A stretch of DNA of 51,867 nucleotides, the filler included, from Bipalium vagum (taxonomy: Eukaryota), in the NCBI GenBank assembly GCA_037834085.1. It is 3 parts of 3 records of this genome, joined end to end, with 100 filler letters (N's around TTAATTAATTAA, not from the genome) between each part and the next. Parts side by side here need not be neighbours in the genome. Positions count along the whole stretch, not along the records: positions 35,682 to 51,867 come from JBBMKC010123335.1; 2 more parts are not named here. One strand, written 5' to 3'. Shown here piece after piece: positions 3,510-51,367 of this stretch (the first letter of the stretch is position 1; every line of letters begins with the position of its first letter). A program made the translations under genes and the position numbers. The notes under the pieces are model-generated. The model was not told the origin of the DNA, did no database searches, and was given only the letters and a program-made list of their open reading frames with translations.

Positions 3510-5667
3510 CACTGGTCTGCATCATTTTTGCAGTCTGGATTTTATTATGCATTTCTGAATCGTCTTTTCATGCTGATTTCAAATATGTAAGAAATTTTGC
3601 TCCATCACCTCAAATTTTCATTTAATATGTATATTTTAAATAACAAATTGTTTAAATAATTGTACAAAACGTGAGATATTTTAAATTGAAAAAGAATTTT
3701 TTTTTGGTAGATAGTACGTGAAACACATTATAATTAAAGAATATATTTAAACTATATTTTTAGATGAATAGAAGTGCAAAAGCAATCCTGACAAGTTCTG
3801 CTACATTTGTGGTTAAGTAATTTTTTCGGGTCTGCAGTTGCCTATCATCAATTTTGTAAAGAAAAGCTATCATGCCTATTTTGGTATTAACCTTGGTAAT
3901 CAAGACAATGCTTTTGCACCGCAAATATGTTTTAAAACATGTGTCGAAGGTCTTCGACGCTGAAGCAACTGAAGACAAAAAGCCTCTCATTTGGTATCTC
4001 TATGATTTGGAGAGACTAAGATATCATGCAAGTGACTGCTTTTTTTGCATGAGAAATCTGGAAGGCATAAATAGAAAAGCTAAACATCATATCAAGTATC
4101 CTGATGTTCTGCGTTGAAATCGGTTCCTCAAGGACCAGAGGTCCCAATTCCAAATACTCTCCATCATATAGAGTCTTCGTATGATTCATATAAAGATATG
4201 AATTTTATGGATAAATCTGCAACATATAAGCCAACAGCTGCCACAACTGAACCCATACCCTTTAACCAAACTGAGCTGAACGACTTGATAAGAGATCTAT
4301 GCTTGTCCAAGGAATCTGCTCAGCTGTTAGGATCTCGGCTGAAGAAAAATCATCAGATACATCCATCAGTGACATTCTCCTGGTACCGTAATCGTGAAGA
4401 AGAATTTTGTAAATACTTCACACTGCACAAAGAAGTATCGCTAATTTACTGCAATGATATAAGCGGCCTTATAACAGCTATGGGCTTAGCATACAACCGT
4501 TTAGAATGGCGCCTATTCATCGACTCTTCATCCAGAAGTCTGAAATGGTAACTATATAATAGTAACAAAGTCTCTTCTGTTCCGGTGGGCCACTCGATGC
4601 AAATGTCGGAAAAAATTGGAAATATGAAGCTTCTTCTACGTAATTTAAAGTACGAAAATCAAAACTGGATAATCTGTGGTGATCTAAAAGTTATTTCTTT
4701 GTTGCTTGGTCTACAAGGTGGATATACAAAATATCCCTGCTTCATCTGTTTATGGGACAGAAGGGCAGACGAGCAGCACTACATACGAAGGAATTGGCCA
4801 GTAAGATCTCATCTCCAGCCAGGTTCACATAATGTTTATTCCAATGCCCTTGTCAATCTCCAGAAGATTTTGCTTCCATTGCTGCACATCAAGCTCGGCG
4901 TAATGAAAAATTTTGTCAAGTCACTAGACAAGAAAGGTCAAGCTTTTTCTTTAATAAAGATAAATTTCCGCGCAAAAATAAGCCTAAATTGGAAGCAGGG
5001 ATTTTTGATAGCCCTCAAATTAGAGAGCTCCTGAAAGATACTGATTTCGATGATTGTCTTAAAGATTATGAAACCAATGCTTGGCGTACATTTAAGTCCA
5101 TTGCCAACAATTTCCTAGGAAACCATCGAAGTTCATACTATGAGCATATTGTGGAAGAGCACCTTCAGAGTTTCAAGGTTCTTGGTGCACGTATGTCTGT
5201 AAAAATACATTTCCTCAACTCACATTTGGACTACTTTCCTGACAACTGTGGTGACATGAGCGAAGAACAAGGAGAGCGATTTCATCAAGACATTAGTGTT
5301 ATGGAAGAAAGGTATCAGGGCCGCTGGGATGTGAACATGCTTGCCGACTATTGTTGGTGCCTCAAACGAGATGATTCTGTGCACAACACAATCGAAAGTC
5401 GTTGAAGAAGCCCTTTCTTCCACCGTGTAATCTATAATAAATTATTATTGTTACTTTGCAGATTTTTTGACAATTATAAACAGTATTGTACATATAATCG
5501 TAGTGTTTTTATGTAATAATATATAAAAATTTCAAATTGTTGTATCATAAAAACTAGACGTGACTGAGACAAACGAATTACTGATTTGAAATCAGCGAAA
5601 TATTTCGTTATAGAATCTGCTTAAAAAGTTCAAACCGCATAAAAAAGTCTTCAAATGCAGACCAGTG
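3510..5667 (+). mobile_element. Chapaev3-type DNA transposon (CMC group, Transib/RAG1-related), full length
   Basis: Perfect 13-bp TIR CACTGGTCTGCAT / ATGCAGACCAGTG, a 3-bp TAA duplication on both sides (3507-3509, 5668-5670), and a subterminal GCTGATTTCAA motif at both ends. Confidence 0.88.
3764..5430 (+). pseudogene. Chapaev3-type transposase, frameshifted
   Basis: Pieces in ORFs 3872, 4114, 4585 and 4989: CKSNPDKFCYICG, HASDCFFC, WRLFIDSS, ICGDLKV, GYTKYPCFICLWD, LHIKLGVMKNFVK, HFLNSHLDYFP, SEEQGERFHQDI, MLADYCW. Several frameshifts. Confidence 0.88.
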
Positions 5668-35581: not shown

Positions 35582-35681
35582 NNNNNNNNNNNNNNNNNNN
35601 NNNNNNNNNNNNNNNNNNNNNNNNNTTAATTAATTAANNNNNNNNNNNNNNNNNNNNNNNNNNNNNNNNNNNNNNNNNNNN
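35582..35681. other. Assembly gap with artificial six-frame stop linker
   Basis: 44 N + TTAATTAATTAA + 44 N. Confidence 0.97.
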
Positions 35682-38180: not shown

Positions 38181-41100
38181 ATGAGCACTTTTGAACTTGA
38201 TTTATCAAAATCTGATAGTCTTATTGATGACATCCAAAAAATTTTCAAGCCACCATCTGTGGAACCTTCAGGAAATTCTCGTTTTGGTAAAATGTATTTA
38301 AAAAGTTTGCAATACAGTCAAAATAGCGGTGTAAACATAAAAGATTCTATTACATATTCTCAACAAAATTCCTTGGAAGAAATTGATAGTAAATCTTTAA
38401 AATCTGGCAACATAAGTTGGAAAAAACCAAAATCAAATAGCCATGAATACTGTGACAGTTGTGGGACAATTGAAGGTGAACGATTGGTATGTGATCGTTG
38501 TCCAGCAAGCTTTCATTTGGAATGTTTGGATCCACCAATTGACAACGAAGAAGCTCCAGTTGGTGTTTGGTATTGCAATCGTTGTACAGCGATTATGAAA
38601 GAAGAAGATGATAAATTTTCATCAATAAGTGCTGGAAGTACATCCAGAATTGATAATGATAACATTAATATTGGGTTTACTAATGGATGTTACGGTTTAT
38701 TGTCATTGTCGGCTAAGCGGTCAGTACATAGTAGTAGTTCTGCATCTTCGGAAATAACAACTGAAATGTCAGATGAAATTCCAATGAAAAAGCGTAAAGG
38801 CAATGATAATGGCATTTACAACAATGGTAATCAGAAATTAGTTGCTCTTCAAAACATTCAAGATGTTGTACATTGCTTGAACCCAAAAGAGTTCGATTTG
38901 TCTAAAGATCTATTTCCTGGAATCAAATTACCAAGTTAGTCAAATGAAATAAAGTGAAATGGATTAATTATTATCGAGTTCAGATTCCTTTAAAACCTTT
39001 GCTGAAATGAAAACGAAGTCGGTGGTCAACATCGAGAATGGAATAATTCCCAGACCCGTTGTTACGTGCTTTGAGTGTTCTAGGTAATTAAATAAATCTT
39101 GTATCATTGTATCTATTGCAATTATATATTATTCAGTATAAAAAACAACTGTTTTGTTAAATATCATTTACGTCAAATCATTTACTTCATCTCTTGACTA
39201 AATATTTTATTGCAATGTCTGAAGAATTTTTTCAGATATTTTTATTATGAAATTCTTTTCTTCGTCTGTTTTATTACTTACAATAGTAAGCTGATAAAAT
39301 TTCAATTTATTTTTTAATGGTTTGTATGCTCATTAATAAATATTTACAATAATTAAATTAAATTTATGAATATTGACTTGTTAAGTGCAATAGTTCCCAA
39401 TATGGTGCAATTGGTGCAAGTACGACTGTGATGAAGAAGACCAATGTCTTGTAGCTATCTGTCAAATTCATCATCTAATTATAATCTTTGGCATAAATTT
39501 TCCAAATTTTCAATTCCTTAAAATTCATTAAAAAAATAATCATATAAATAAATAAGATTAAAAAATATTATATATTACTGTTAGAAATAAGTAATAAATT
39601 AAAATTTAAAAATTTTTAATTTCTTAAAAAATGGGATACGTTAAGTACAATATAGTACAATAGTACAATATCCGAAATATTGTAACAAGGAAATTTTTAA
39701 AGTAAAATAAATATTGACTTTTATAAATATTAATCGATTTTTTGAAAAAAAATTAAACTCGTTTCAGGACTTGCATGTATGGATGTCTGATCCAATGTGA
39801 TTATTGCCCACTCTATTATCATCTCGATTGTCTTGACCCTCCTCTGGTGCAACTACCGTCTAGAATTGAAAGGTGGATGTGCCCCAATCACGTTGAACAG
39901 GTGATTGACAATGCCGGAATCGTCAAGTCCATCCGTTTATCGGAAAGAATGAAAGCATATGAAAATTTGCAAAAAGAAATCGATAATATCGATGAAATCG
40001 ATCTGTTAACGAGCTTTTCACAGGGTCATGGTTTTAGATTTGGTGAAAGATCAGATTCTGAGACACGAGTGAAACAGAAAATTAAGGTTCCAGATGCCGT
40101 AATAAGGATGTATAAATATCCACTGAAAGTCGTGTTTGTATTGATTTTCGATATTGATAATTTTTATGTTTTAGGGGAAGAAACCAAACGTATCAACACA
40201 TGTCGATGAATCTGTGTTTACAGAAGACCAGAAAAGTCTATTAACATCTCTTTTGCAGACAGGTAAGAATTTTTGTTTTCATGGTAACTATCAGTATATT
40301 TTCATAATTGTTTTTAATATTAATCTGTCTTTTTTATTAATAATATTGATTCGTGAAAATTTTCGTTAAGATGCTATTGGCACTGATGCCACTACACTGC
40401 TGAAGAGTGCACTCGATTCTTTACGACACTTGATTTCTAAAAACAATATTGATCTCTTTTCTCATTTGTCACCTAAACCTTTGTTGGTGTCGAAGAGTGG
40501 CGGAGAGAAAATAAAATCTCGAGCACTGCTGATTCCGATTTCTAAAGACGGTTTAATTCGTGACCAAAAGTCAGTGGCAAGAATGATTTATCGCAATTGT
40601 GATATTGGTTCAGGTTAGTGGTAGTAGTTTGTTCATATTTTCTTATTAAAGCAAGGATCATGCTAATACATAAAGTTATTGATACCAATAATTTTTCCTA
40701 TCTAAAGAATGGTTACTTATTGATTTTATTCCTGGTTTTCTATTTGATATATTTCCTGTTTTTCTTTTTGTTGTTGATGAGAATTAGGGACAAGGCTATA
40801 ATTTATCGATTAATGTATATTTCAATACACATCTTCAATTTTGTATTTCACAATTTAAACTTAAATATTATCTCATGTTTCGATTGGCTGTAATGATAAA
40901 TCGATATATAGACTAGTTCAATCGATTAATATGTTAATTAATCAGTCACTGTTTTTAGAATCACTAATGTTAATTTTCCCATCGTAAAAATATCTTGCAT
41001 TGATAATTTCAAATTAATTTTTTGATTGTCGGTTGGATTTTCATTGGATAATAATAATAAATCAATTTTTTTGATGGATAAATTAATTCCGTTCAGGTCT

Positions 41101-42290
41101 TGATAACGATTGTGTCATCAGCGGCTGCAAGTATGTTTCGGCTAGACATGCATCGATTTGCTATTTGGACAATCACTTCTCATTTGAACTGGTCAATTAT
41201 AGTCGATACGGAACAATTGTCGACGATCTGCTATATTACAACAATGTTTCTGACAAAGACAGTCATAAAGTTTCTCAGTCCAATCAGAACATCAAAGATT
41301 TGAGAAACTTTCTCGGAACCAATGATAAGTCTGCCAGACTGTCCAAGAAAGTCCCTCAAAAATCGATGAAATCCCAACGAGATGTGGTAACAAATATGAT
41401 TTTCTCTCCGTTTTATCTGTTGATCGGTACGGTTGAAAAACGTCTCTTTTCTTTCGCCGAAATTTATTAATTTTCATTTTTTTACACACCGACTTCTTCC
41501 ACATTTAATATTAATTCATTCAAAATTCCTTTTTTCTTCTCTGTCGTTCTTATTTTTAATATTACTGTCTATTGATTCTTTTCACTAAATAAAATCATTA
41601 TTATTGAAATATTATATGCTATCAATATTTTACATAAAAATTTTCCTATTTAAATTTCCCTTGTAAAACCGATTAAGGAAATTGTATTTACTTAATATTT
41701 TTTAATTGATTTTTAAATTTTAAAATCAGGACAAGAAAATTTGGAGTTGTACCTGCTCGGAATACGGTTACTCAAACACGGCCTCTAACAATTGTCAGGA
41801 AGACGGCTGGGAATTGACTGCCCCACTGAAATTTGGTTCCGTCATTCGAATTGGTTGTCAATCGTTTCTTTTCACAAATGTCAACCATTCTCTGCAGCCC
41901 GATATAACGGAATCGATCTCTTCCCAGTCGTCGAAGTCGAATTCCAGTGATTGCAATGATAACAAGGCACTAAACTCTGACACAACCCCCTCAGTTCAAA
42001 CAAGCAGCGGCAGCAGCAAATCACAGACCGAGACAGGAAAGCTGAAATCCGCGGATCAAACATCGCCACCGCCAATCACAGCCATCGTATCAATTGATGA
42101 TCCTGAGAAATCGAAAACTTCAATTGAAGTCGTTTCCACGACAACAGTAATAACAACGACAATGGCGATAACATCGTTATTGTCATCATCATCATCAACA
42201 TCACTGTCGTCGTCCTCCTCGTCATCATCTGTTCCTTTGGTTATTAAACAAGATGAACGTGAAACTGATACGAAAATATCCCACGAATAG
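38181..42290 (+). CDS. PHF12: PHD finger protein 12 (Pf1) orthologue: PHD1, PHD2 and C-terminal FHA domain; about 798 aa, 7 coding exons
   Basis: Proposed exons 38181-38934, 38984-39083, 39768-40128, 40175-40262, 40371-40613, 41097-41386, 41730-42290 (2397 nt, all GT-AG, phases consistent). Motifs match PHF12 as recalled: [130 protein letters not shown]. Confidence 0.93.
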
Positions 42291-42885
42291 GGCGGAGGTG
42301 AACACTGAATTTTTCACTCGATTTTTTGGCGAGATGGGCAGAGAAATCAAGAGCAGCTATTCTTAGAATCAAATATTCATTTTTTTCATAAATACAATAT
42401 AAAAACGTTGAAAATTCAATCGATATTTCACAAATTATCATTATCATCAATTGTTATTGAAATACTTGTAAATAGTTAATATATATTTATAGTCATCAAT
42501 AATATATATATTATTGTCATTGAATTTTATATAGGGAAATTTAAAGAAAACAAGTGTACGTTTTCTCCGAAAAACTTTTCAGAATTTCTGTTGGTTTAGT
42601 TTTTTAAAAAGTCCGCCGCTTTGCGTGACGCTCTTGGCCGCGATTAATTGGTTTTAAAATTTTTATAAAATCTTGTTAAGAAAATAGTCATTTTCTATAA
42701 TAAAATAATAATAAAATCTTTGGATTGTTGTGATAAATTTTAATGTAAAAACTTTTTGGGAAACGGTATTGATTGTAAAATGTTATAAATAATAATGATA
42801 ATAATCAAATTGTTGAAAGCTGAATGTACAAATGTAATTTTTAACCATTACGATTGATATATAAATGATTTGTCAATTACATTTA

Positions 42886-42891
42886 AATAAA
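42886..42891 (+). promoter_or_regulatory. Candidate polyadenylation signal for PHF12
   Basis: AATAAA followed about 20 nt later by a GT/T-rich tract. Other AATAAA copies occur near 42700, so the call is uncertain. Confidence 0.3.
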
Positions 42892-43509
42892 TCTCATAGC
42901 CTCAACTTTGTGGGTGTTTTTTATTATTCTTTGGTATTTAAAACAAGAAACTGTAAGAAGGCGTTCTGTATTAATTGTGAATCTCAAATAAATTAAAATT
43001 TTTTGGCATGTTAAAATAATTTGTTTTGATTAAGTCAATGCGAATAATCTTAGTTAATTCTCTAACACTTCAATTAGTTGAATAGGAATTAAATTACTTG
43101 TTCAATTGTAGTGGAATGTCCTCTAATTACGCTGAACAATAATACGGGTTAGCAAGGTATTTTATTTACACCATCTGAGCATTTCCATCAAATTAAATAT
43201 ATTTATTAAATAAAATAATTTCGAATGATATCTAATTTATAAATAATTTTATCGAAAAATTGAAGTTATTATTACTAAAGTTGGTAAAGTTAAAGAAAAA
43301 TGAGTAAAATGAAAATTAATTAATCATGTGATAAGAAGAAGTAAAAGATTGAACAAGCAAAAAAATAATTATAAATACAATAAATAAAAAGTCTTGGAAG
43401 TATATTCCAACTTATTTATCAGTATTATTATTATAATATTTATTACCTTTAATATGTAATACCGAAGTTTCAATATTTAAACTCATTCTTATTTTTTATA
43501 AAATTTTAT

Positions 43510-44528
43510 AATTTTTTAATCAGTACTCCATTATGTAAAAAAAAGACCATTGAAACAGAAGTTATACTATTGGAATTTAGCAGCAAATGTTTTTGAAGGA
43601 AGAATAAAATATAATGAAGAAAAATTATTTTGAAATTATGAAGAGACATTGGGACAAAAAGTCAAAGCATTGTTTTAATGAACTAATTCTCATTCTCATT
43701 CTAAATCTCAATCTTTTTATTTAAATAATTTTTCTGCATTCACATTACTAAAATTAAATTTACAAAACAAGGATACAGAAAATGGTTTTAGCTTTTACCT
43801 CGATTTATTAATTTTAGTAGCAATAAAAACCTTAGATCAATTGAAATGACATCCTATAAAGATTCAAAAAACTCAGAATCTTTAAAAATAAAAATTAATT
43901 TTGTTGAAAATACAAAGAAACTCAAGTTTAAAGTTTTAGATAGAGTAAGGATATTTAAATATACAAGGTTCGTTCAATAATGCCTCGGATTGAATAAGAA
44001 AAAAACATGATAAACCAATCAAGCCAATTGGCTTAAACACCTACTCGTATGTTTGTTTATATGCATAAATTAAATTATCTGATTGGCTGACGTATAATTC
44101 ATAAGCTAACTCACATTTCATTTTTTGCCAAATGAGTGAGGTGGAATGCAGAAGTGTAATAAAATTCTGTGCTTTTAAAGAAGTCGTCTGATGAAATATT
44201 TCTTGATATGGCAATTGCATATGGCAACAAATGTCCTTCTAGATTCACAATATATCGTTGGATATCATTTGTCAAGCATGGCCGTGAAAGTGTGCACTAG
44301 GATTATTCCAATGCTGGCAGACCAACTGAAATTTCCGATCAGAAAATTACTCAATGTGAGGCGATAAATGAATTTGATAAGGGTTATACAACAGAATGAG
44401 TTGAAGAGATATTTATTATTAAACAGTTCTTTATGACTACCCCAATAACTTGTGAAAAAATTGATTTAGATGTTGATAAAATTCTTGGAAAATTTTATGA
44501 GTATGAGTTACAGAAAACTCCATTTTGA
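43510..44528 (+). pseudogene. Polinton retroviral-type (rve) integrase remnant, interrupted by a mariner
   Basis: KFTKQGYRKWF*LLP..RSIEMTS..KLKFKVLDRVRIFKY | FDKGYTTE*VEEIFII..TTPIT..DL..ILGKFYEYELQK. The catalytic core appears deleted. Confidence 0.85.
43964..44372 (+). mobile_element. 5' half of a mariner (irritans-like) inserted in the Polinton integrase
   Basis: TA|CAAGGTTCGTTCAATAA terminus; MSEVECRSVIKFC..AYGNKCPSRFTIYRW..KHGRESV..AGRPT; truncated where the integrase resumes. Confidence 0.85.
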
Positions 44529-44999
44529 ATAAATTCTTAAAAATTATTTATTTGTTATACTCAGTAAAAAATAATTAAATTTAAAAATGGAGTGGTATAT
44601 ATTTTCTATTTTATATTATATTTAATAATTACTTAGATTAGAAGAATTGTATGAGGAGTTGGAGAAAATCCGTAACATGATTATAGGGAAAAAGAATTAA
44701 ATATTCAATTTGAAATGGAAGAAAATGGAATTGCAGATAAAAAATTGAACAAGAAAAAAATATAAAAGCTAAAAATAAAGGAAAAGAACAATGCAGAATT
44801 TTAAGAAAATACAGAATTTAATGATTAAACTATTTTTAATAGATTTAACTTTAGTATTAAATAAAATTGTTTAGAGTTCTCTCTTTTACTTGATAGTATA
44901 CAATCTTTTTTATTTTAATTTAAATATACTATAATAACTAGATTAGTATAGATTAGATTCTTTTAGAATTAGATTAGATTAGATTCTCATTTAAGATAA

Positions 45000-45577
45000 G
45001 GAAGTAATATTATAACTAGAATTGTTGGAATTGAAGCAGCAGCTTTAACGGGAAAAATAAAGATAACTTCAAGAGTATATGAAATTTCTTATATATCTTC
45101 ATATATTGAAAATGAATTTAAAAGTACAAAAGAATTAGACTCATCAAAATTAGAAGAGTATTATATAAAAGTTAATGATAATCCAATTTTTTCAAATAGT
45201 ATAATGAAAATATTTAAAGGTTATAATATACTTAATAACTTAATTGTTACTTTTTCAGAAAATTCAGTTGATGAAACGTTATACAGAGGGTGATTATGTA
45301 TCAAAAATGGTTAATATTTTTATGATAAATAGAATCATGATTGATTGCAATATTGTAGAAGAAGGATTTTTTAATGGTGAAAGAACGAAAAATATTATCG
45401 ATTTTCCTTCGAGCAATGTTAGAAGATAATCTTTAACCATTTAAAAACAAATCTGCCAATTTACTATCCTTTAATTACAAAAATATTAATAAAATAAAAT
45501 CTACGATATTTAATAACAAAATAACTTTTAATTTTAATGGAAAAGAACTTAATTTTAATATTCACCTCAAGAGGTAA
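45000..45577 (+). pseudogene. Polinton minor capsid (penton) protein remnant
   Basis: ITSRVYEISYISSYIE (IP.G.YEI-like), VNIFMINRIMIDCNIVEEGFFNG, PIYYPL, FNGKELNFNIHLKR*. Confidence 0.75.
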
Positions 45578-45601
45578 AGAGATTTAAAATATTTTATAAA
45601 A

Positions 45602-46325
45602 ATGGAGAACCATTTTTTTGATAGTTTAATAAAATTTAATCATTATCCTCATTTACCACAAATTTTATGAATGTTAAAAATTGGTCCTTTTGGATCAGAA
45701 AACATAAATTTATTATATTATATGCTTTTACAAGAAAACTATATAGATTTCAATAATCTTATAATTTTTTCTAAAACTGATTTTATTCAACCAGAATTTA
45801 AATGTATAAGAGATTGTATTAAATATGAATTATCTAAAGAAGTTCATAATAAATTTAAAAATAAAATAAAACAAAAATTTGAAGAAAATAAAGAATACGA
45901 TTATACAGAACGAAAAATAAAAGTAGATAGAATAATAAATTCAACCTCCAGATAAATTAGATAAGAAATTAAAACTATTAATTATTTTTGATGATAAAAT
46001 AAATGAAAAAAATCAACATATTATGGAACGTATTTTAATAGAGTAAAATGTGTTATTAATATACATATTTATTTATCTCAATCATTTTTTGAATTATAAT
46101 TAAGAAGTATAAGAAATAATACAGATCTTTCAATATAATATAAAATTTCTAAATCAAACAGAGAATATATATTCCAAAATGTTATCACATATTATTGAAA
46201 AAATTGAATTCAATTGTTTTTACGAAAAATATTTAAAAGAAAAACTATAAATATTTTTTATGAATTTAGAAGATGAAAAAATGTTCCCATCATCATTTTA
46301 TAGTGAAGAAGCCATTGAATATTAA
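45602..46325 (+). pseudogene. Polinton A32/FtsK-type genome-packaging ATPase remnant
   Basis: Decayed Walker A MLKIGPFGSENINLL, IIFSKT..QPEF, Walker B LLIIFDD, YLSQSFFEL*LRSIRNN. Confidence 0.82.
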
Positions 46326-46367
46326 CTTTCCCCAATTTTAATAAATGTTAATTTTCTATTAGAAAAA

Positions 46368-46890
46368 TGTTGAATTTAAATTTTGATAATAATTATGATC
46401 ACCAAGACTTAACAATAAAAGGAGTGATTATTTAAAAATATCTTTAACTGCTGCAGCATCAAAAAATTTAAATAAAAATGGAAATTTAACTTATTTTTAT
46501 TACAATCAGCAAATGCTATAGATTTATTATTATAGTTTTTTGAAATTGAAATTAAAGATATAAAAGCGAAAGAAAATATAACTTTACAACACAATTTCTT
46601 TTCTTATTTTTTTCTTATGTGACTTTAAAATTAGGTCCATCAGAAATAGAAAAAATTCAAAATTTAGGTCTATCAAATTCTATAACAAACTTTGCAATGA
46701 TTGATAAAAATAATGATGGAGAAATATTTTGATGGATTTCAGATAGAGAAAATGAAAATCAAACTTTAATAATCCAGATGGACTTTAATCAAAAGATAAT
46801 AAAGGATACAAAACTAGGAAAAGTTTATATTCAAAATAAATTTACAGGATAATTTTCATTAAAATTAATATTTGGATTTTTTCAATTTTA
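46368..46890 (+). pseudogene. Polinton major capsid (double jelly-roll) protein, N-terminal remnant
   Basis: DHQDL, ITLQHNFFSYFF..VTLKLGPSEIEKIQNLGLSNSI and LKLIFGFF occur in the order recalled for Polinton MCPs; truncated. Confidence 0.68.
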
Positions 46891-46959
46891 TTATTAAGTA
46901 TTATCATTTCTTTTCATATTCCTTTATAAAATATTTAACTTTAATTTCTTAAAATAAAT

Positions 46960-48810
46960 AATAGAATAGATGAAATTGTTTCAGATTAAAAAAAAATTCA
47001 AGGAGCATATAAAATTTCTTAAATATAAATTGCGAATAATCAACTTTATTACTTTTTGACACATTTCTTTGAACAAATACAGGTTTTAAAATTTTTAAAT
47101 TATAAAAAAATTTAAATTTATTTTCTAAATTAAATTTCGAAATTAGTATATGTCAGTATTTTCCAAGTCATTCCATCGTAAGATTAAAATAGAAATCAAA
47201 TAATTAGAAAACCAAAACGACATTCGAATATTTCTTTTAAATTTTTTTGATTTTGAATAATTATTTCTTTTATCTTCAGCTATACTTATTTATTTCATAA
47301 TAATAATTTGTATTTCGTTTTATATTTAAAAAATCATTATTCATTGCCTTAATAAAATCATCTAAAATGCTTTCTCCATGAAATTCAAAATATCTTTATT
47401 CATATAATTCCGGATAATTTGAATTAATATAAATTCCTGCTTCTAACGGAAGTGGTTTGATATTAATTTTGTATCATTTGGAATATTTTCATTTATATGT
47501 GTATTTTAACATTCAAAATCCCTGTATATTACAAATGGTATCTTATTTCTAAAACAATGATTTTTAAATTTACAACAATCTTCTTTTGGAAAGTTAGCTT
47601 TTACCTCTTCTTGTTCTTGAAATAATCTCATATGTTTATTAAGTATATTTTTTGGTAGGTATGAATTTCAGCAATTAAGACAAATATGATTACTATGTAA
47701 TTTAGCATTAAGAAACATATTCATATTTTTACATAATAAATAATGATGATTAGGTAATAAAAAATTACAATTCTTTTTCTTCTATAGTTGCATAAGCTAT
47801 AAAAATATTCAATATGTATTGGTTATATTATTTTATCTTCATTTGTATTTTTTTCTGATAATTCAAATATTTACACTAATGGAATTCGCGAATTACCTGA
47901 AAAATGGATAAAATGTATAGAAAATAATGGAGATTATTTCCCCGATTAATTTATATATATGTTGTATAAATATATCTGTATCTTATTAATGTTATGAGTT
48001 GTGAAAATTATTAAAATAGGCACCTTTTCTATTTGTAAACCTAATATAATTTTGATTATTAAATTTTTTAAATCTTCTATTTTCATGGGAAAATTTAATT
48101 CATTCATATATGGAGCATAACTTTTTAATATATCACTATGATCTACTGCAGGATATAGACTAGCAATAGAGAATAAACAAAACATTTAAAATCTTTATTA
48201 TTTATATTAATAATATATCGTGATGAAAAAATGGTAATTTAACATATGAAAAACTACCTAAACTTTATATTATATATATATATTTAACTAAATCTAGTCT
48301 AATTGATTTTATCTTTTGAAAATTTTTTATTTTCTTCTATATACTTAATTGATCTAAATTTGATTAAAGTGTATTTCTTATTTCTTCTTTCATCTTTATA
48401 TTTTCTGGCTTTGAGTAATATGAAGATGTTAATTCTTGTTTTTCTCCAGAAATATTTCTTTTATAATTACATTTTATTAATATCTGACATTAAAATTTAT
48501 TATTAACTTCAAAATATTTTCATTAATTCATTTTTAAAATTGTGAATATTTATGTCATTACAATTTTATGTAGTTGCTTTAGTTAATCCAATTTATAAAT
48601 TATAAATTTAAAAATAAATAAATTTATAAATTGTTTTAAATTATATTCATCATAAAGGATTTCTTTATTAAAATTAAGATCATCAGTTTTGTATTTTGAT
48701 ATTTTCCTGTATAAATATTCATTATAATGTTCTTCATTGTGTTTTAATTGTTCATTATATTTAGATTCATCCAGTTTTGGCTTGAAAATTCTTTCACATT
48801 TAAACTTCAT
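46960..48810 (-). pseudogene. Protein-primed DNA polymerase B (pPolB), N-terminal and exonuclease remnant
   Basis: SLGSFSYVKLP..IININNKDFKC, FPMKIEDL, HHYL, HICLNC, KFKNHCFRNKIPFVIYRDFEC (ExoI), and a decayed ExoII. Polymerase palm motifs are absent. Including 48300-48810 is tentative. Confidence 0.82.
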
Positions 48811-48949
48811 TTTTGGATCTCTATTTTATTGGTTATATTTTAAACATATTTTTCTGTACTTATGGATGTGGCGTACGATACGTAAGTCGTCGGCGTATAT
48901 AAAAATAGGGGTATATGAAAAACAGGATATATAAATAAACTAATCTTGT

Positions 48950-49545
48950 AGTAGTGAGAATGGCTGTTGGAAATTCTCATACAGAATATAGTTTTCATCA
49001 AAACGATTCGTTCGTATGTCTTATTAGACTTTCAATTGAGATCATAATCTTCATAGACCTCTGGTGATTTTATAAATTGTGTGGAATTCATAACCAAACT
49101 TTGTATGATATTATATTTCTCAATAAGGTGCAAATGATCAGAGGGTCTGTTCACTCTAGTGGAGATTAACACTCATTTCTGTGGCAGCATATCTGGAATT
49201 CTATTCGGCCAATTGTCGTACAGCTTCTTATTCAGAGTCAATGATCGAATAGTTTTTGAGAATTATACCATATGTCTATCACTATTTTTGAATCGATTGA
49301 ACCATACCTGCATTGGGTCTCACTTATTCATTCTTCCCATAAATTTCTTTTATCCTTAGGTGCTCACACTTATACAAAAGCTCTGGTCAAATTCATACAG
49401 TAGATAGTGTTTAATATGTATCTTATCTGCATGCATATTTTGATATTTAAAAATGTATCTAGAACGTCTCTATTTTTTGTTCTTGTCTCTCATGCTAAGC
49501 AGGGTAGTGAGAAAAATTTGTTTTTCTTTATTGAGGACCCCTGAG
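48950..49545 (-). mobile_element. Degenerate mariner, 5' portion
   Basis: ATG at 49436: MHADKIHIKHYLLYEFDQS, then WFNRFKNSD, HLHLI, IPHNL. Confidence 0.72.
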
Positions 49546-50134
49546 CTTAAGAGCTAGATTTTTCTTTTTTAAAGAGATAAAATATTCACTTGGGAAAGAA
49601 ATAATCAAGGACGATATCCGTATTTTGTAAAATTCTGTCTATAACAAAATATTCTTTATCTTAATAAATTGATTATTTTAGTCAAGTTAATTAATAATAG
49701 TAATTCGATAGCAACCTTCATCCGTTAAGACCTAATTAAATATTAAATTACTTCTCTCTTTTGAGGGTTTTAATATATTCATCGTTTTAAATGCTTTATC
49801 TAACATATTTGATATTAATATGAAAATTAAAATAATTATCAAAATTATATTATTATTAAATTAAATTATTAGTTACAAGTTATTGTGTTAAAATATTTAG
49901 AGATTCATTTCTCGTTTATTATTGGGCTTATCGCTTACTTATAATGGGACATTAAGATTGGTGGGATATACTTGAAAAAAATTTTCGTTGATTTTATTAA
50001 CACCATTTGATTTACAAGTTTATGATATTTCATGTTTATAAAAAACTCCAGGAAAATAAATAAAATCTTTAATATTTGATTTAATATATTAATAGTAATT
50101 TAATATATTATTTATTAATAATCACAATAATATA

Positions 50135-51367
50135 TTAGGGTGATTCATAAGTAATTTCGTTTATTATTTAAAATAATAAAAATAATAAAGGGAAAATAAA
50201 ATTATATTGTTTCAAAGTAAAGGCCATTTGAATCAATAGTTTTAAGCTATATATCTGGTAGTTATTGGATCCCTTGTTGATACCATTCCTTGTCCTTGAA
50301 CCTGAAAATGTCGTCTCAATCTCGTCCAAGTTATTGAATCTACATCATAAATCTAAATATGCTATTGATCGAAAAAGATGGCAATCCGATGGGCAAGATC
50401 AGTGCTGTATGCTGGATGTGGTAACAGTTCAATAAATTCATATTCTCTGATTTTTTCGATTGTTTTCTTGTCAGTGTGCAGTTTTGCAATTTCTTTCTGT
50501 AAGACCACCCGCTTTCGATTGACCAATACCGGATATTTCAACTTTAATTTTTGAAAAATTTGATCAAATTGAGCACAATATAGGCCTGCGTCTAGTGATA
50601 TACCATTTGGAATCAATTTGAAGTAGATCATGCCTTCGAAATTCCACGAAACGCATAATAATATCTTCTGTGACAATCTGTCTCTTTTTGGAATAGATTC
50701 TGGCACTTGTCCAACCACTGATTATTTTTGTGAGGATTGGTAAAATATATTCACTTTTCATCAGAAGTTACAATTTGTCTAATGAAACGATCATCCGGCA
50801 GTTTTCTACACCCTTTTATAAGTCGCTTTGCCTGATTTTTGGGCAAATCGTGAGGTACTTCACTACATCGGTTTTAACCTTATGGATTACTTTAAGCTGT
50901 CGAAAAATTGTTGCTTGATAAATACCTAGATCAGCAGACAATATTCGAGTGCTAGTTTGGTCTCAACAACATTGTGTAGCGCTTCTTGATTCACAATTAC
51001 TGGCATACCAGAACGTGGTTTATCGTATAGACCATTGTTACCCTCAATAAATTTTCTGAACCAGATTTGGCCTGTACGAATGGAGACCACATCTTCACCT
51101 TCCATTTGCATATTTGTTTGGTAGCTTTACTCGCTTTGAATTGTTGCTTCCAATAGTGTCGAACCAGAGTACGAATTTCAATTTTTTCCATTTTTATTTC
51201 AGCTAAAATAAAAAGTGGTATTACATTTATATAACATAAATTAATTAACCTATTAGTAGAAAATTTATTAGGTTTCAAATTGATATATAAATCGATATAT
51301 TCAAATTGTTTATCAACTAAAAAATTACTTTGAACTACTTAAAAAAATTACTTATGAATCATCCTAA
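50135..51367 (-). mobile_element. Full-length mariner (DD34D) element (1233 bp), disrupted transposase
   Basis: TA|TTAGGGTGATTCATAAGTAATTT ... AAATTACTTATGAATCATCCTAA|TA; MEKIEIRTLVRHYWKQ, WFRKF..RSGMP, KILLCVSWNFEG, LLPHPAYSTDLA. Confidence 0.93.

Follow-up and report, generated by a model that had tools for sequence, protein, structure and literature searches.

Polinton/Maverick elements of the adintovirus type are defined by the gene families discussed below, carry a vOTU domain in their polymerase, pPolB, and are spread across animal phyla, according to the available parts of the literature (PMC8502044, PMC11161782, PMC8097293, PMC4028283, bioRxiv 2023.08.22.554363). More than 20,000 integrase-linked polymerases are reported from about 1,000 eukaryotic genomes in the accessible portion of one survey (bioRxiv 2023.08.22.554363), 96% of vertebrate Maverick copies are given as defective in excerpts of another study (PMC8097293), and a degraded endogenous adintovirus relic sits on human chromosome 7, as partially documented in PMC8502044 and PMC4028283. 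A comparable copy lies next to the host gene PHF12 in the DNA analysed here, a 51,867-nt stretch from the genome of Bipalium vagum (GCA_037834085.1) that we call the window. As a fossil it is unremarkable and of a kind already known, with remnants of an integrase, a penton, a packaging ATPase, a major capsid protein and a pPolB.

Adintoviruses and animal Polintons, in the portions of PMC8502044 and PMC4028283 at hand, share with the window copy an rve-type integrase, an OTU-containing pPolB, an ATPase, a penton and a double jelly-roll capsid; the window copy differs from adintoviruses by its truncation and by having no recognisable protease or ends. Vertebrate Mavericks, in the available parts of PMC8097293, resemble it in their converging modules, one reading integrase, minor capsid, major capsid and the other, on the opposite strand, containing pPolB, and in being mostly degraded, without discernible terminal repeats. 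However, their ATPase belongs to the polymerase module, whereas that of the window copy lies between the penton and the major capsid, on the integrase strand, and their PZ, PW, PM and protease are not recognised in the window copy.

Reference loci were gathered with a pPolB alignment, which yielded 1,017 longer proteins (120 of them listed), 8 IMG/VR loci and 80 metagenome loci; scans with ATPase, capsid and penton added others. Two IMG/VR loci, L097 and L098 (16.9 and 17.6 kb), are apparently whole or near-whole Polintons: both match Pox_A32 and PF21738, one also matches rve and the other, weakly, Peptidase_C5. They hold the same five gene families as the window but have a guanine-plus-cytosine (GC) content of 32-38%, and L097 has a different order, INT(-), ATPase, penton, capsid, pPolB, protease. 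Another locus, L001, proved to be a tailed phage matched by chance.

Five gene remnants

Detection relied on frameshift-aware scoring of profiles from intact Polintons (14 integrases, 13 pentons, 20 ATPases, 17 capsids, 24 proteases and 56 polymerases) under one lenient parameter set, with block-wise dinucleotide shuffles as the null; integrase, penton, ATPase and capsid were scored on 42,900-49,300 against 25 shuffles. The lenient gap penalties were adopted after a first weak capsid score, and a purely AT-rich scoring background, which gave false peaks in GC-richer stretches, was discarded. All five genes exceed every local shuffle (20-25 per gene) and run co-linear with their profiles: integrase, penton, A32-type ATPase and major capsid on the plus strand, pPolB converging on the minus strand. 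This is the order given in a preliminary description of the same DNA, which had named a Polinton/Maverick fossil with both capsid genes and had called for a frameshift-aware check of this sort. That description also spoke of segments riddled with stops and frameshifts, and per aligned stretch there are 0-9 stops, while the frame breaks 0-6 times; the longest stop-free run is 42-97 codons per gene, and the core genes lack the open reading frames (ORFs) of an intact Maverick. The reference families match rve, Pox_A32 and PF21738 as well as the corresponding folds, and the element is, with near certainty, a Polinton/Maverick fossil.

The pPolB remnant (47333..48321, minus strand) covers profile columns 218-502 of 1224, scores 76.4 bits (0/20 shuffles) and keeps the N-terminal 40% of the protein, with the vOTU protease domain, a zinc finger and the Exo I motif. 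Natural proteins match it by tblastn with an E-value (E) of 2e-33. A HMMER search with a 53-amino-acid (aa) ORF at 47,667-47,509 gives eight proteins, with E 6.8e-13 against 1.84 billion proteins; five of the eight match the window back by tblastn, P0001 best with 60% identity over 104 aa. Three candidates, P0004, P0005 and P0008, are unrelated to pPolB and were excluded from the profiles. A model of the pPolB family (predicted local distance difference test, pLDDT, 87) folds like phi29 polymerase (E 2.5e-18) and also like adintovirus PolB; a PDB search with the polymerase profile returned zinc fingers only. PF03175 is lacking in all six long reference polymerases, which would fit the Beta rather than the Alpha class of adintoviruses (Beta, or group 1 Polintons, being characterised in the accessible literature by a divergent OTU-PolB without a pfam03175 match), but the fold search places polymerases of the bidnavirus type high among its matches. 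The window pPolB has no palm motifs A, B or C, which 53-55 of the 56 references carry. The gene may begin near 48,830, and the signal in 48,322-48,945 is marginal (5/200 shuffles); at the opposite end of the span originally claimed (43500..48945), 43,500-43,758 holds nothing recognisable. Within the remnant, about 140 nt at 47,890-48,040 (minus strand) form an insertion in the alignment with the profile, and 47,952-47,984 has a 34-nt, 88% match at 19,182-19,215.

The A32/FtsK-type genome-packaging ATPase remnant (45602..46189, plus strand) has a broken Walker A region and is recognised by its profile (48.4 bits over 45671-46129, null maximum 17.2, 0/25 shuffles), by tblastn (E 2e-7) and by profile-profile comparison (hhalign 89.5%, E 2e-6); reference ATPases match Pox_A32. 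Upstream lies the single jelly-roll penton, the minor capsid protein that the literature names PX (45033..45408, plus strand), which reaches 37.3 bits against a null maximum of 16.4 (0/25 shuffles) and is matched more weakly by natural proteins in tblastn (1e-3); a possible tail to about 45,580 is not significant (68/200 shuffles). The reference penton family model (pLDDT 71) aligns with the mavirus penton (Z 12.1, root-mean-square deviation 7.6, 221 aligned; Foldseek E 2e-8), and the reference fold resembles mavirus and Sputnik capsid chains. POTRA was rejected as the identity of the penton ORF, atlas matches all scoring <0.9.

The integrase survives in two plus-strand pieces, one from the region past the catalytic core (43759..43967; 20.4 bits, 0/60 shuffles; hmmsearch independent E-value 8e-6) and one from the C-terminal region (44371..44522; tblastn E 1e-8), the latter within a scored stretch, 44310-44522, that reaches 30.6 bits against a null maximum of 17.0 (0/25 shuffles). 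This C-terminal third resembles Polinton integrases, and the reference integrase bears Pfam rve and Chromo. The interruption between the pieces was examined with public run X1, which contains 82% of sampled window words and whose contigs were compared with 41,000-45,843 at 80% likeness (1,282 records placed). One contig skips exactly 43968..44370 (plus strand); because this related contig runs past without it, the 403-nt stretch is an insert, which the preliminary description had overlooked. Ten contigs diverge from 44365, and 5-47 contigs overlap the sites listed. The insert has a GC of 35%, and Pfam gives HTH_32 at E 0.05-0.08 only; its GC and motifs suggest mariner, likely the 5' part of such a transposon with its 3' side cut short.

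The double jelly-roll major capsid remnant (46554..46885, plus strand) aligns to columns 78-186 of the 432 in its profile and reaches 26.7 bits, against a null maximum of 17.9 (0/25 shuffles) and only 4.5 bits over the window background. It is a marginal call, because the same profiles score 18-30 bits (maximum 29.6) on unrelated DNA at window positions 1-42,300. Scored on 46,150-47,350, the capsid gives 21.0 and 26.7 bits with strict and lenient penalties, above all 200 shuffles under both settings; it also exceeds reversed and complemented controls, and other family profiles reach 10-14 bits on its interval. Reference capsids match PF21738. The C-terminal half leaves no signal (123/200 shuffles). 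A narrower capsid profile scored worse than the broad one, and the PDB, searched by sequence with the capsid piece, with the penton and capsid profiles and with one reference polymerase, gave nothing or chance matches. Two reference loci, L095 (1932-5133, minus strand) and L102, each have two adjacent major-capsid-like genes.

These background scores, together with the blank Pfam results, are what favours a rival reading, in which the matches arise by chance from AT-rich sequence or stem from bits of other, unrelated transposons. Against it stand the E of pPolB and the co-linearity of five families in one 4.6-kb stretch, in which the protease profile and three control ORF profiles all stay within their shuffles. 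This reading is refuted for every one of the five genes but the capsid, where some doubt is left, and as an account of the whole it is of negligible probability.

The junction between capsid and polymerase

Capsid and polymerase both end at the junction (46886..47332), each breaking off near 40% of its profile where the two meet, and the later columns of both profiles leave no signal there. About 450 nt are present in place of about 2.9 kb of expected coding sequence; therefore the middle has likely lost at least about 2.4 kb, and a single deletion between the converging genes would account for both truncations. The layout is compact because these genes are truncated. We hold it to be highly probable that the window contains one Polinton/Maverick copy with five broken genes, its middle likely lost by deletion.

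Several results weigh against this interpretation. Pfam, applied to six read-through frames of 42.9-49.2 kb and then to smaller pieces, finds no family of the five genes (standard domain scans do miss the element, as had been predicted for automated annotation), and neither the ATPase piece nor the capsid piece gained a supported candidate in word-based protein searches (0/74 and 0/85). The integrase catalytic core is unrecognisable upstream of the surviving pieces, 17/60 shuffles reaching its score. At the capsid site, tblastn with natural proteins and Pfam give no match, and hhalign is weak (13%, with E 0.002, and 1%). An adenain-type maturation protease, found in 74% of Polintons in the available part of PMC4028283, is not detected on either strand (11/25 and 19/25 shuffles reach the score) and could be deleted, decayed or never present. 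Three flank comparisons revealed no terminal inverted repeats (33-183 of 200 shuffles reach the score) and no target-site duplication was found, the element ends not being located. Run X1 is possibly from the same sample as the window, hence not independent, and its contigs reach only to about 45.8 kb; capsid, junction and polymerase lie to the right.

A junction outside read-contig coverage, with 450 nt devoid of recognisable coding signal, is also what would be seen if two separate Polinton fragments, a plus-strand capsid module and a minus-strand polymerase piece, had been juxtaposed by recombination, misassembly or a nested insertion. The genome likely contains numerous related copies, in which internal gaps are frequent, and this exact gene order occurs in 0/22 multi-gene loci listed. 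Yet the two parts complement each other without redundancy, their facing genes stop at one place, composition is similar across the two, and converging modules are normal in Mavericks, to judge from the accessible parts of PMC8097293; we consider such a juxtaposition unlikely.

A single copy with an internal deletion would have had the following history. The ancestor, to judge from its family, would be a linear double-stranded DNA element of roughly 13-25 kb that replicated by protein priming, integrated through a retrovirus-like integrase and probably used its ATPase to fill an icosahedral jelly-roll capsid with its DNA. It may have integrated into the germline, received the mariner-like insertion in its integrase, and then, in one internal deletion, lost the 3' halves of both converging genes and the intervening DNA, possibly with the protease; neutral decay would have followed. 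The label 'virion-forming', used in the preliminary description, could apply to such an ancestor only; no protease was found and the window copy is unable to replicate or form particles. The element is likely without function today.

Related copies and lineage

Of the 1,282 placed records, 890 are <95% alike, which points to related copies. At the penton and ATPase sites listed, 5-58 contigs overlap, with 58 at one ATPase site and several bearing gaps of their own; depth of contigs does not measure how many copies exist, and the count is inflated by short AT-rich records. The window copy probably belongs to a multi-copy family with many decayed members. That contigs are far more numerous on penton and ATPase than on integrase would suit an amplified non-autonomous, internally deleted family, mobilised by helper Polintons, whose deletion predates its spread. 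However, contig depth cannot rank genes, the gaps listed in other copies all differ and occur at single-copy-like depth, and the terminal repeats that a mobile derivative needs were not found, which leaves this scenario very improbable beside that of a deletion in the window copy itself.

Without the insert, the element has a GC of 20%, as against 29-48% in 11 reference contigs and 26% in the window; many host 1-kb bins lie at 19-22%, and the element is like host non-coding DNA. Compactness and AT-richness had been read as marks of a special lineage, a view that is not supported, the former following from truncation and the latter being common in host bins. In a quick tree built over 119 columns from 90 polymerase pieces (211 pieces reduced at 75% identity), the window pPolB clusters with P0001, P0002 and P0007, their shared stem measuring 0.55, at a Shimodaira-Hasegawa-like approximate likelihood ratio test (SH-aLRT) value of 93, below the bar of 95; all three were retrieved with the window pPolB as the starting point, and similar base composition may draw them together. 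An undescribed lineage, as once suggested, is possible, with this 119-column tree as its sole basis. Gene orders vary widely among the 22 multi-gene loci. It is conceivable, if rather doubtful, that the fossil samples an unnamed Polinton clade, AT-rich and on a long branch, which has a gene order of its own and has multiplied in this host to dozens or even hundreds of copies, maybe including complete members.

The window adds one host record to the large known Polinton group and illustrates that such fossils can escape Pfam and word-based searches in AT-rich genomes. Should complete copies share this gene order, they would provide an extra branch for Polinton phylogeny; the window copy alone settles no open question, such as particle formation by animal Polintons.

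Host gene and surroundings

PHF12 (38181..42290, plus strand) has several exons, Pfam PHD, PHD and FHA domains and, as top PDB match, human PHF12 (8bpa_C, E 1.9e-20). Its stop codon lies about 1.5 kb 5' of the first recognisable element gene. One 4.4-kb contig of run X1, which may be the window's own source, carries the PHF12 3' exons and integrase and matches 41000-44024 with 0 differences, bearing out the adjacency first described and an integration in host chromosomal DNA. Read-contig depth climbs from about 42,620, where the left end of the element may sit. Short CG-rich patches at 42,610-42,660 and 48,860-48,900 flank the element and are not inverted copies of one another. The right boundary is a decayed mariner-type transposase remnant (48950..49499, minus strand; Pfam HTH_48 E 9e-4, under the curated cut-off). 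Rfam finds no RNA family on 42,290-50,300.

Between integrase and penton, a possible small broken accessory ORF (44588..44830, plus strand), with a hydrophobic start and a charged tail, is seen in translation; it has no match among 1,808 ORFs of the reference loci and no significant Pfam match. The motif TAAAATGG occurs at six window sites, three of them inside the element at 44,582, 45,597 and 46,473 (plus strand), two of these at apparent gene starts (the small ORF and the ATPase). With 2.8 sites expected in the window, 3/100 shuffles reach six, a weak result given that the motif was picked post hoc; the ATAAAC box shows no enrichment.

The window carries two 100-nt gaps (15,767-15,866 and 35,582-35,681), N runs around a 12-nt linker that leave the element untouched, and many transposon remnants. 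Three overlapping plus-strand ORFs of 148-190 aa at 4105-5405, with no significant Pfam match, look like a frameshift-broken Chapaev-type DNA transposase. Tc1/IS630-type transposase remnants lie at 17,628-18,561 (minus strand; DDE_3 E 4e-10, HTH_Tnp_Tc3_2 E 2e-7) and 24,282-25,085 (plus strand; DDE_3 E 0.006), and a broken mariner transposase occupies 50,362-51,338 (minus strand; Transposase_1 E 5e-11, HTH_48 E 4e-5).

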